From Escherichia coli (GTDB taxonomy: Bacteria; Pseudomonadota; Gammaproteobacteria; Enterobacterales; Enterobacteriaceae): a stretch of DNA of 64,000 bases. The notes beneath the pieces were generated by a model. It saw only the letters and a program-made list of their open reading frames with translations. It was not told the DNA's origin and did not search any database. The position numbers were made by a program, and so were the translations under genes. Of the stretch, positions 14,173 through 16,995 are shown piece by piece. The stretch lies in the NCBI RefSeq assembly GCF_013315695.1, contig NZ_CP054353.1; one strand, given 5' to 3'. How positions within the stretch are numbered: the stretch's first letter is position 1; every line of letters starts with the position of its first letter.

Positions 14173-14520
14173 TTATTCTACGCTGTTGGTATCGGTGCGT
14201 TTGTTAATCATCTGGTTAACCAGCCACAAAAAGCCATTGAGAAAGTTATTGATTCTACATGGAATTATTATATTTCTAATCCCTGGTTTTTAAAAGTTGT
14301 GCATAGTGAAAATCAAAGTAAAGGTGTGCATTATGCAAAATCACAGCGTCTCTTAGAAATTAACCATACGCACTTGCAGTTAATGGAATCCTTATTGGAT
14401 GAAGGGAAGAAACACAATATTTTTAAGCCAGATAGCGACCCATTGCAGGTGAATATTAATATTGCTGCGCTTGGGGGATATTATTTGATCAACCAGCATA
14501 CGCTTGGCCTGGTTTATCTG
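14173..14520 (+). pseudogene. ytfA: ytfA remnant: C-terminal fragment of a TetR-family regulator, no HTH domain, 3' end abutted by the IS
   Basis: Frame opens after TAA at 14170-14172 and reads ...[22 protein letters not shown]...[24 protein letters not shown] (ligand-domain-like), then runs into the IS left end. Track ORF 14299..14790 is a chimera of this frame and IS sequence. Confidence 0.5.
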
Positions 14521-14574
14521 GTGCGCCGTAAAACCCCGTCCTTCAGGGCGGGGATATACGGCGCGGTTTTCCAC

Positions 14575-15006
14575 CTAACCAGGTGTTTGCTGTTGTTCAA
14601 TGTATTGACGGATGGCGGATATTGGCGCACCTCCGCAGCTACTGGCAAAATAGCCAGGACTCCACAAAACGCCTTTGTAGTAATACCTGACTGCAATATC
14701 TGGTCGATCTCGTCGCAGTCACCTACCCGATACGCCTTTGAGGCTGTTTACCAGACTGGATATCGCCAGTTTGGGAGGATAGTTAATTAACAAATGGACG
14801 TGATCTGGTTCGCCATCCATTTCAACCAGTTCAGCTTCAAAATCAGCACATACATTTGAAAAGTAAGTGCGTAGTTTTTCTGTCGCGTCATAGTCAAAAA
14901 TCTGACGTCGGTATCTGGTGACAAAGACCAGGTGAACATGCATCAGGAAAACACAATGCCTTCCCCGTCGGATATCGGTTTCTTTATTCACAGACCAAAG
15001 TATCAT
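14575..15006 (-). pseudogene. tnpA: IS200-type TnpA (HUH/Y1 transposase) inactivated by an in-frame TGA
   Basis: ATG 15006: MILWSVNKETDIRRGRHCVFLMHVHLVFVTRYRRQ...[31 protein letters not shown](14719-14721)[50 protein letters not shown]. HxH motif is upstream of the stop; the conserved SPGYFA...GGAP C-terminus lies after it. Confidence 0.8.
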
Positions 15007-15013
15007 TTGGCCT

Positions 15014-16222
15014 GTGAAACGACTACAGGCATTTAAATTCCAGTTAAGACCCGGTGGTCAACAGGAGCGTGAAATGAGGCGCTTCGCAGGCGCATGCCGT
15101 TTCGTTTTCAATCGTGCTCTGGCGCTTCAGAATGAGAATCATGAGGCCGGTAATAAATACATCCCTTACGGGAAAATGGCTTCCTGGCTGGTTGAGTGGA
15201 AAAACGCCACTGAAATGCAATGGCTTAAAGATTCGCCCTCACAGCCATTGCAACAGTCACTGAAAGACCTTGAGCGGGCTTACAAAAACTTCTTCCAGAA
15301 GCGGGCTGCTTTTCCCCGATTCAAAAAGCGGGGACAGAATGATGCATTCCGCTACCCGCAGGGCGTTAAGCTCGATCAGGAAAACAGCCGTATTTTTCTG
15401 CCGAAACTTGGCTGGATGCGCTACCGGAACAGCCGTCAGGTCACGGGTGTTGTGAAAAATGTCACTGTCAGCCAGTCCTGCGGTAAGTGGTACATCAGTA
15501 TTCAGACAGAAAGTGAAGTATCCACTCCGGTTCACCCTTCAGCATCAATGGTCGGGCTGGATGCTGGCGTGGCTAAACTCGCCACGCTGTCAGATGGCAC
15601 AGTCTTTGAGCCTGTAAACAGTTTTCAGAAAAACCAGAAGACGCTGGCGAGACTTCAGCGACAGTTAAGCCGCAAGGTCGAATTCAGCAATAACTGGCAG
15701 AAGCAGAAACGCAAAATACAGCGACTGCATTCCCGTATCGCAAATATCCGCAGGGACTACCTTCACAAAGTCACAACGACCGTCAGCAAAAACCACGCAA
15801 TGATAGTCATTGAGGATTTGAAGGTCAGCAACATGTCAAAGTCAGCAGCGGGTACGGTCAGCCAGCCGGGGCGCAATGTCCGGGCAAAATCAGGTTTAAA
15901 CCGTTCGATACTGGATCAGGGCTGGTATGAAATGCGCCGCCAGCTTGAGTACAAGCAGCTCTGGCGTGGCGGTCAGGTGCTTGCTGTTCCGCCAGCGTAC
16001 ACAAGCCAGCGTTGCGCGTGCTGTGGTCATACAGCGAAAGAAAATCGCCTGTCACAAAGTAAATTCAGATGCCAGGCATGTGGATATACAGCGAACGCTG
16101 ATGTAAATGGCGCTCGTAACATTTTAGCGGCGGGGCACGCCGTTCTTGCCTGTGGAGAGATGGTGCAGTCAGGCCGCTCGTTGAAGCAGGAACCCACCGA
16201 AATGATTCAGGCGACAGCCTGA
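15014..16222 (+). CDS. tnpB: TnpB (IS605 OrfB family; RuvC-like RNA-guided nuclease family), apparently intact
   Basis: 402 aa from GTG 15014; N-terminal [12 protein letters not shown]...RFVFNRAL; RuvC-I GLDAGV, RuvC-II VIEDL, zinc finger CACCGH...CQACGY, Ruv[13 protein letters not shown]. Confidence 0.85.
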
Positions 16223-16290
16223 ACGAAGCAGGGATCCACGTCCTTCAGGGCGTGGAGGATGTCAACATATCAGTATGGTTTCCCCCCAGG
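16080..16290 (+). ncRNA. Candidate TnpB right-end guide RNA (omega/reRNA) spanning the tnpB 3' end and right-end hairpin
   Basis: Inferred from family architecture only; right-end hairpin at 16238-16257 is visible; no promoter or processing site identified. Confidence 0.3.
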
Positions 16291-16356
16291 CACTGGAAGC
16301 CAGACGTAAGGTCATCAAAGAGACGCTCCTTAGCTGGCTTTTGGTTGATCCTTCAT

Positions 16357-16995
16357 CTACCGCGCACGAATAAAACTGCCATCCGGCTGGCGGGTAAACA
16401 GGACCTGTTGATTATTCCCCGTATCAATGGTTAAGCCCGTCACCACGCCGCTGGCGTTCTGGCGGATTTTCACCATCTGCCCATTTTGCAAATTACTCAG
16501 CGGCTTACCCGCGCCTTCTACCTGCGCCATTGCATAGACATCGGTAGCGGGCAGTCCGTGGTCGCGGAACAGCTGCGCCATCGTTTTACCGGGTTCGACA
16601 CGGTAAGAGCGCCATTGATTATCAATTCCGCTATCTGGCTGGAATGGTTGCGTTTGGGTAGTTTGCGGCTGTTCTTCTGGCTGGCCTTCCTGTATAGGTT
16701 CTGGAGCGACCGGAGCCACCTGATCAGGATCATTTTGTGGTGTGACTAATTGCGCCCGCAGCTGTTCTTCTGTCGGCGGTTGTGATTGCGACTGAATATC
16801 TAACTGCGCTTCACGCGTCACCACCGGCGCGTTGGGCGTATCATCAGATGGAAGCAGAAATCCGACCACCAATACAATGGCGGCAATAATGATCCCCCGA
16901 CGATGCATCGGCGGCAGCGGGTCCATGAAGCGAAAATTGTCCGGCGCGTGCCAGACTTTCTCCAGGGTTGGTTTTAGTTCAAAGCGCCCGGGCAT
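16357..16995 (-). CDS. ytfB: YtfB, OapA/LysM-domain cell-division protein
   Basis: 212 aa from internal Met ([46 protein letters not shown]...), single TM, Pro/Gln-rich linker. Confidence 0.85.

Follow-up and report, generated by a model that had tools for sequence, protein, structure and literature searches.

The divergent genes tnpA and tnpB of the insertion sequence IS609 stand back to back in a 64,000-nucleotide stretch of Escherichia coli DNA (contig NZ_CP054353.1; this whole stretch is called the window, and positions are counted from its first base). We consider it likely that both genes are served by a bidirectional sigma-70 core promoter, compact and pseudo-symmetric, which coincides with their junction and gives rise to two leaderless mRNAs. 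As judged by comparison with related loci, this design is not an anomaly: it is conserved in a proteobacterial clade of IS605-type elements and constitutes a new example of arrangements whose kinds are already known. The features on which the argument rests are the following:

14575 to 14991, minus strand: tnpA, encoding a Y1 HUH transposase and here a pseudogene, as assigned from Pfam and an in-frame stop codon; the annotated open reading frame (ORF) is extended to 15006.
14992 to 14998, no strand assigned: near-invariant heptamer AGACCAA, reading TTGGTCT on the tnpA strand, immediately next to the tnpA start.
14999 to 15004, minus strand: proposed tnpA -10 hexamer GATACT, 7 nt before GTG 14991, from conservation.
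15001 to 15006, plus strand: tnpB -10 hexamer TATCAT, from conservation and a K-12 transcription start site (TSS) 7 nt past the hexamer.
15013, plus strand: predicted tnpB TSS, by homology to the K-12 insQ TSS.
15014 to 16222, plus strand: tnpB, intact and starting with GTG, encoding an insQ-type RNA-guided endonuclease of 402 amino acids, from Pfam and alignment with ISDra2.

The junction stretch that holds both starts reads ttcacagaccaaagtatCATttggcctGTGaaacga; positions 15000-15016 on the plus strand are gtatCATttggcctGTG. The annotated tnpA start is a minus-strand ATG (CAT at 15004-15006, first base 15006), tnpB starts with the plus-strand GTG at 15014-15016, and seven bases (15007-15013) separate the two. 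Both ORFs, one of 95 amino acids on the minus strand from 15006 and one of 402 amino acids on the plus strand from 15014, begin at the first possible codon past an in-frame stop, and neither can be extended upstream. Identical starts with the same 7-bp gap are found in the RefSeq/PGAP annotation of E. coli FAM21845 and K-12, where the genes are called yncK and insQ. The preliminary description of this DNA, which had placed the two starts 7 bp apart on opposite strands, is thus confirmed by the sequence and by the annotation of other strains. The figure itself is most likely an effect of annotation, produced by an over-extended tnpA for which ATG 15006 was taken as the start: with the homologous tnpA start, GTG 14991, the spacer comprises 22 bp (14992-15013).

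This reassignment is based on a comparison of 80 loci that gave a TnpA alignment in species-representative genomes. Of these, 76 have a divergent tnpB; the 76, which come from many Proteobacteria, encode TnpA proteins 62-85% identical to the query and provide 67 distinct junctions. A separate retrieval from viral contigs served as a replicate set and contributed 27 new junctions. Where the annotated E. coli tnpA has its codon 6 (GTG, 14991-14989), 71 of the 76 related loci have ATG; most close TnpA homologues are 138 amino acids long with the N-terminus MKNETDIRR, and the Salmonella protein (MILWSMTKETD) carries a methionine at both candidate positions. Judging from these alignments, the tnpA start is probably mis-set at 15006 and corresponds to GTG 14991 in the homologues. 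The annotated ATG belongs to the reverse complement (ATGATA) of the tnpB -10 box TATCAT at 15001-15006, and an ATG arises at this position only where the tnpB -10 box has exactly this sequence, i.e. in seven of the 67 junctions. It lies upstream of the TSS deduced for tnpA and is probably not used.

Taken literally, the annotation would imply that tnpA is translated from ATG 15006 and that the promoters lie deep in the opposite genes, giving long and mutually antisense 5' untranslated regions (UTRs) with the possibility of mutual regulation, a scenario we regard as very unlikely. The longest ORF has its first start at ATG 15006, which is also the PGAP choice, and as E. coli has GTG and not ATG at codon 6, the upstream ATG might have taken over; yet its dependence on TATCAT confines it to the few junctions with that hexamer. 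The extension 'MILWS' which it would add was considered as coding and rejected, because indels in the spacer are not multiples of three, serine and proline alternate before the conserved methionine and most homologues have no upstream start. A minus-strand -35-like TTGACC (reverse complement of 15057-15062) is present in tnpB, followed 18-19 nt downstream by an A/T-rich stretch; at 6-7 nt before ATG 15006, however, there is no -10-like hexamer, as TTCACA and TTTCAC lack the A at position 2 and the T at position 6. Likewise, a minimal AGG stands 4 nt ahead of this ATG, whereas Shine-Dalgarno (SD)-like motifs occur in none of the 67 junctions, and the K-12 tnpB TSS described below lies 1 nt before the GTG and not within tnpA. 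If the shared architecture is true, the annotation of a 143-residue TnpA in E. coli and Salmonella probably includes five codons too many.

From one homologous start to the other, the spacer measures 19-23 bp in 70 of the 76 related loci (22 bp in 30, 21 bp in 19, 23 bp in 12 and 20 bp in eight) and 21-23 bp in 20 of the 27 viral-contig junctions, and because of this constancy the tight spacing is not a matter of chance. Read on the tnpB strand, the spacer follows the consensus AGRCCAA, 0-3 nt, A-N-TATAAT (or TATACT, TATGAT or TATCAT), 6-7 nt, ATG. The motif TANNNT stands 6-7 nt ahead of the tnpB start in 66 of the 67 junctions, most frequently as TATAAT (29), TATACT (12), TATGAT (9) or TATCAT (7), and in 65 junctions it stands on the minus strand 5-7 nt ahead of the tnpA start; at other distances it is almost absent. 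The two opposing hexamers overlap by 4 bp in 37 junctions and by 2 bp in 28, and TATCAT and GATACT in the window belong to the former kind. For tnpA, TACTTT (14997-15002), 5 nt before GTG 14991, offers an alternative register. Whatever the spacer length of a locus, each hexamer keeps a constant distance to its own start. The viral-contig set reproduces this pattern with a tnpB -10 in 23 and a tnpA -10 in 25 of its 27 junctions. On both sides, position -1 is a pyrimidine and position +1 a purine, which corresponds to the start-site preference of sigma-70. None of the SD-like tetramers GGAG, GAGG, AGGA and AAGG occurs at functional distance from either start in any of the 67 junctions. The start codon is ATG in 62 of these junctions for tnpB and in 65 for tnpA; in the window and in K-12, both genes start with GTG.

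Sequences resembling a -35 element are enriched as well: matches of at least four out of six positions at a spacing of 16-18 bp were found for tnpB in 39 of 66 junctions (13% in the background) and for tnpA in 24 of 65 (11.5% in the background). These hexamers fall within the first codons of the opposite gene. Codon 5 of tnpB, for example, is CAA in 60 of 63 cases with a glutamine codon, which reads TTG on the tnpA strand. Moreover, six plasmid relatives that consist of tnpB only, and whose upstream DNA is unrelated, all carry TANNNT exactly 6 nt before the ATG.

Such tnpB-only relatives were seen on more than 1000 plasmids, mostly of Klebsiella (e.g. L004, L005, L135, L136 and L138); many of these resemble the window from precisely the tnpB start codon onwards (query position 456) and have the left-end hairpin some 45 nt upstream, with TAAAAT at 6 nt ahead of the ATG. 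Two further loci deserve mention. On the viral contig L100, 618 bp separate the two starts: the module stays by tnpA and is followed by the first tnpB codons (ATGCAACGACTTCAAG...) and then by unrelated sequence, as if DNA had been inserted into the 5' end of tnpB. Locus L011, on a 2057-bp contig of Streptomyces mutabilis JCM 4400, encodes TnpA and TnpB proteins 83-85% identical to those of E. coli and has a junction nearly identical to that of Providencia; it is likely an assembly contamination and not a Streptomyces element.

Direct evidence for transcription from the junction comes from K-12. SMRT-Cappable-seq, which captures 5'-triphosphate ends, yielded a forward-strand TSS for b1432 (insQ) at 1503656 of NC_000913.3, as listed in Supplementary Data 2 of that study (PMC6131387). 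The GTG of K-12 insQ begins at 1503657, and because of these two positions the K-12 tnpB mRNA has a leader of a single nucleotide, its TSS being a T exactly 7 nt past TATCAT. With a TSS 0-2 nt from the start codon and no SD sequence, the K-12 tnpB mRNA is leaderless, while for tnpA we infer the same from the geometry of its hexamer. Accordingly, the promoter reading is established on the tnpB side in K-12, and the tnpA TSS as well as both start sites in the window strain are deduced. The 7-nt discriminator shows a single base change relative to K-12 (15010, G in the window instead of A), and another difference lies at 14986.

The mechanism we propose from these observations is as follows: Two -10 hexamers on opposite strands, TATCAT for tnpB and GATACT for tnpA, would share the middle of the spacer. 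As each hexamer lies 6-7 nt from its own start, RNA polymerase bound in either orientation would begin transcription at the start codon or 1 nt before it. Both mRNAs would consequently be leaderless and require neither a 5' UTR nor an SD sequence, while -35 contacts, if any, would be made within the first ~10 codons of the opposite gene. Since leaderless mRNAs need no intergenic space, tnpA and tnpB can sit back to back. The two polymerase orientations would presumably exclude one another. Because the guide RNA of TnpB is made from its own mRNA (PMC10278001), initiation at tnpB would also feed production of the omega-RNA. Two statements of the preliminary description can be assessed in this light. 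That the starts leave no intergenic space holds insofar as two conventional divergent promoters with 5' UTRs find no room, but the spacer itself carries the promoter, from which leaderless transcripts would start. That each promoter might lie inside the other gene is correct under the annotated ORFs, in that TATCAT falls within the first two codons of the annotated 'tnpA' and any -35 contacts within the opposite gene.

As another possibility, the preliminary description had named expression of tnpB from elsewhere, and this does occur: the same K-12 dataset contains a read-through transcript b1431|b1432 (ydcL-insQ) that begins at the ydcL TSS 1502347 (PMC6131387). One could therefore argue that tnpB has no useful promoter of its own and is expressed mainly from the upstream host gene (ydcL in K-12, ytfA here), antisense to tnpA. 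The truncated 5' part of ytfA is indeed on the tnpB strand in the window, and the E. coli tnpB -35 element matches the consensus at only two of six positions. Against this stands the separate primary TSS at -1 of the GTG in the very dataset that documents the read-through, as well as the -10 box in 66 of 67 junctions and in all six tnpB-only elements, whatever gene flanks them. Furthermore, a read-through RNA would present the GTG without an SD sequence and with the option to fold into a 7-bp hairpin or a 13-bp inverted repeat, and it would have to pass a terminator-like hairpin (14572-14585) past the left end. As the main route to tnpB, read-through hence seems quite unlikely; it may still supply an omega-RNA precursor and in this way coexist with the shared promoter rather than replace it.

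The assignment of a leaderless tnpB mRNA presupposes that GTG 15014 is the true TnpB start. We take GTG 15014 to be the homologous TnpB start, because the Pfam profile matches from residue 1, the protein aligns with ISDra2 TnpB from its N-terminus and codons 2-20 are conserved. TnpB contains the domains OrfB_IS605 (RuvC), Cas12f1-like_TNB (zinc ribbon) and HTH_OrfB_IS605 (E-values: PF01385 5e-34, PF07282 1e-24, PF12323 4e-14), and positions 1-47 of the HTH_OrfB_IS605 profile align with residues 1-48. The alignment with the solved ISDra2 TnpB (8bf8/8exa) covers residues 3-372 (E 6e-54) and pairs residue 3 with residue 3. Over codons 2-20 the amino acids are conserved across the 67 distinct junctions while their codons vary synonymously: Arg3 is present in 60 (CGA, CGC or CGT), Leu11 in 66 (seven codons) and Pro13 in 65 (four codons).

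The alternative, raised in the preliminary description as the outcome that would restore an ordinary intergenic region, is a TnpB translated from an internal methionine, which would turn 15007-15073 into a normal 5' UTR. The candidate site is the following:

15063 to 15076, plus strand: AGGAG (15063-15067), 6 nt, and the internal ATG of Met21 (15074-15076), a possible secondary initiation site.

Here the canonical AGGAG is ideally spaced from ATG 15074, and a GTG at the 5' end of a leaderless mRNA is a poor initiator in E. coli. InsQ was presumably also given as 382 amino acids in older database entries; K-12 InsQ is currently annotated with 402. Met21 is kept in 61 of the 67 loci, but an SD-like motif precedes it in merely 13 of these 61. 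The abundant synonymous change in codons 2-20 points to purifying selection at the level of the protein, and the profile match from residue 1 and the 3-to-3 alignment with ISDra2 TnpB agree with this. An internal start for TnpB therefore finds no support, and we judge this reading highly improbable. An N-truncated TnpB of 382 amino acids is possible as a side product in the E. coli lineage, given the local sequence.

Directly against the tnpA start lies a nearly invariant part of the junction. The heptamer (AGRCCAA; TTGGYCT on the tnpA strand) is non-coding, and its bases G-5, G-4 and C-2 are present in 67 of 67 junctions, T-6 in 66 and T-7 in 64; the matching bases before tnpB vary freely. 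At the viral locus L104 the module stays by tnpB, and the tnpA start is about 33 nt further off. Our best guess, drawn from position and conservation, is that the heptamer acts as the discriminator of the tnpA promoter and thereby fixes its TSS. Pairing of TTGGYCT with the 3' tail of the 16S rRNA was checked by hand and rejected, because a motif that immediately abuts the start codon cannot function as an SD sequence. A more far-reaching and rather unlikely proposal is that the module of 20-23 bp (AGRCCAA, linker, ANTATAAT, 6-7 nt) works as a built-in switch, in which a polymerase bound in a single orientation would set the ratio of TnpA to the homing nuclease TnpB and omega-RNA throughout the clade, TTGGYCT would act as a biasing operator or as the element that fixes the TSS, and E. 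coli IS609, with its two GTG starts and degenerate -35 and -10 boxes, would be a naturally attenuated version.

Several observations weigh against the shared promoter as we describe it. A simple consensus promoter scan reported nothing at the junction, and in E. coli IS609 the -35 elements match at just two to three of six positions (two for tnpB) and the tnpA -10 at four. Promoters with conventional -35 and -10 elements were rejected as an explanation, since the consensus scan found no match at the junction and the -35 element, although enriched in the clade, is poor in E. coli. Because of these poor -35 matches, the IS609 promoter would be weak and depend on its -10 element alone. The related loci share common ancestry, so that the counts given above measure conservation and not independent origin, and part of the minus-strand TANNNT signal is automatic given that TATAAT is nearly palindromic. 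The near-invariance of TTGGYCT exceeds the conservation usual for a discriminator. The tnpB TSS is known from K-12 and not from the window strain or copy. Mapping of TSSs, which the preliminary description had suggested as a check, could be taken from published K-12 data and gave a divided answer: insQ starts 1 nt before its GTG, but no TSS on the tnpA strand is contained in the SMRT-Cappable-seq list, which covers only transcripts over annotated genes, tnpA of K-12 being a pseudogene. The supplements of Ettwiller 2016, of Forrest 2022 and of the Shigella M90T TSS paper provided no usable tnpA-strand TSS either.

A last objection concerns translation. For leaderless translation, E. coli shows a strong preference for an AUG at the 5' terminus. 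Both the window and K-12 have GTG twice and thus lack this determinant of efficient leaderless translation, which is unfavourable and makes the protein output uncertain. IS609 is predicted to be a weakly translated variant.

Both start codons are, in addition, embedded in potential secondary structure:

14987 to 15018, no strand assigned: 13-bp inverted repeat across both starts, with the arms TTCACAGACCAAA (14987-14999) and TTTGGCCTGTGAA (15006-15018).

The minus-strand RNA of this repeat folds into a 13-bp stem (z = -2.4), and a 7-bp hairpin at 15010-15030 includes the tnpB GTG (-10 kcal/mol, z = -3.9). By inspection, K-12 keeps the 13-bp stem on the tnpA-sense RNA through a C-G to U-G change. 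Solely E. coli IS609 has the long inverted repeat, which the other 65 junctions lack; for this reason it was rejected as a family-wide regulatory hairpin. To judge from their positions, repeat and hairpin could bury the start codons only in transcripts begun upstream of the element's own TSSs.

How does this junction compare with known systems? The K-12 copy of IS609 shares with the window copy the gene order, the annotated starts, TATCAT, the tnpB GTG and a TGA at tnpA codon 96; it differs in its site (ydcL-ydcO instead of ytfA) and by 42 substitutions, one of which falls between the -10 hexamer and the GTG. Pseudo-symmetric bidirectional sigma-70 promoters have reportedly been described by Warman et al. 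of the Grainger laboratory in 2021. A near-symmetric -10 element gives rise to pairs of divergent TSSs, which are typically 18 bp and commonly also 10 or 23 bp apart (PMC12825309; PMC10268837). With these promoters the IS609 junction has in common that -10 elements on opposite strands overlap within ~20 bp and that A-11 and T-7 (TANNNT) are present on both strands. Start-to-start distances of 21-24 bp in the IS609 clade lie within the 7-25 bp range reported for bidirectional promoters and close to their common 23-bp class; in the window, the first bases of the two start codons are 23 bp apart. The junction differs from them in that it would produce two leaderless mRNAs of linked mobile-element genes, in that its hexamers are offset by 2-4 bp as opposed to the reciprocal 18-bp arrangement, and in that documentation exists for just one TSS of the pair. 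Leaderless mRNAs such as those of lambda cI (from PRM) and Tn1721 tetR provide a second parallel: in tnpB, too, the -10 hexamer lies 6-7 nt before the start, an SD sequence is lacking and transcription starts at -1/+1. Unlike most related junctions, however, IS609 has GTG on both genes, and efficient translation of the window copy is doubtful.

The hairpins finally recall the protection of IS200, IS10 and IS50 against outside transcription, where hairpins sequester the start site ('fold-back inhibition'). Similarly, the stems of IS609 would hold both start codons in outside transcripts only. The hairpin of IS200, however, hides an SD sequence, whereas IS609 has none, and outside E. coli IS609 the clade lacks the long repeat.

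Cas12 descends from TnpB elements, which also find use as genome editors. To our knowledge, little has been written on the natural control of tnpA, tnpB and omega-RNA expression. A full-text literature search returned no description of a leaderless tnpB or of a bidirectional promoter shared by tnpA and tnpB in bacteria. If the proposed architecture is true, it explains the compactness of divergent IS605-type elements. It would likewise mean that the intact tnpB of the window is transcribed weakly from its own -10 hexamer and poorly translated, which bears on whether this gene is expressed at all. The junction might furthermore serve as a simple test system for the competition between polymerase orientations at two functionally linked genes.

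The tnpA gene itself is interrupted. Its product matches Pfam Y1_Tnp over residues 18-95 (E 8.4e-26), and codon 96 (14719-14721) has undergone a nonsense change from TTA to TGA. An intact tnpA in FAM21845, located at the same ytfA site and retaining TTA, differs from the window copy solely at 14720. The K-12 copy (yncK, L006) has the same TGA at codon 96 at a different insertion site, and its occurrence in both copies suggests gene conversion between copies or the spread of a defective copy that was mobilised in trans. No transposition of IS609 was observed in K-12 mutation-accumulation lines (PMC5009759), as is to be expected because tnpA of the K-12 copy is defective.

The element as a whole and its ends are described by these features:

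14518 to 16265, plus strand: IS609, IS200/IS605 family, 1748 bp, from identity to K-12 and comparison with the empty site.
14534 to 14553, plus strand: left-end subterminal hairpin CCCCGTCC-TTCA-GGGCGGGG, read from the sequence.
16235 to 16256, plus strand: right-end hairpin TCCACGTCC-TTCA-GGGCGTGGA, read from the sequence.
16095 to 16265, plus strand: probable omega-RNA scaffold including the right-end hairpin, from sub-threshold Rfam matches and sequence.

Compared with the K-12 feature 'insertion sequence:IS609', the element is 97.65% identical over 1746 bp; it is the known and already annotated IS609 and as an element ordinary. Nearly every E. coli genome has this region: among 5426 complete genomes, 5423 contain a match, at a median of three places per genome. 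In the window IS609 interrupts ytfA, a gene of the TetR family, immediately 3' of TTTAT (14513-14517), and splits it into the parts 14224-14517 and 16266-16373. K-12 ytfA represents the empty site, in which the flank before 14518 is joined straight to 16266, so that a clean insertion of 1748 bp without target duplication is apparent; the K-12 copy, in the ydcL-ydcO interval, also follows TTTAT. The right terminus is TCAA. Left-end and right-end hairpins share the core CGTCCTTCAGGGCG, and the left one is kept in the tnpB-only relatives. Subterminal hairpins in place of terminal inverted repeats, together with the lack of a target duplication, place the element in the IS200/IS605 family.

An Rfam search gave no match at the tnpA/tnpB junction and only matches below the gathering scores at the 3' end of tnpB (HgcC 24.7 bits, RAGATH-18 29.5 bits and sot0042 17.4 bits, spanning 16095-16278). 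By position, these fit a probable omega-RNA scaffold with a guide that would start at 16266. The terminator-like hairpin on the plus strand (14572-14585), with the sequence CACCTAACCAGGTG and a T-rich run behind it, is located within the element close to the left end, where tnpA has its stop codon; transcription entering IS609 from ytfA might be limited by it, though K-12 shows some ydcL-insQ read-through. K-12 ytfA, uninterrupted by IS609, is itself annotated as a pseudogene.

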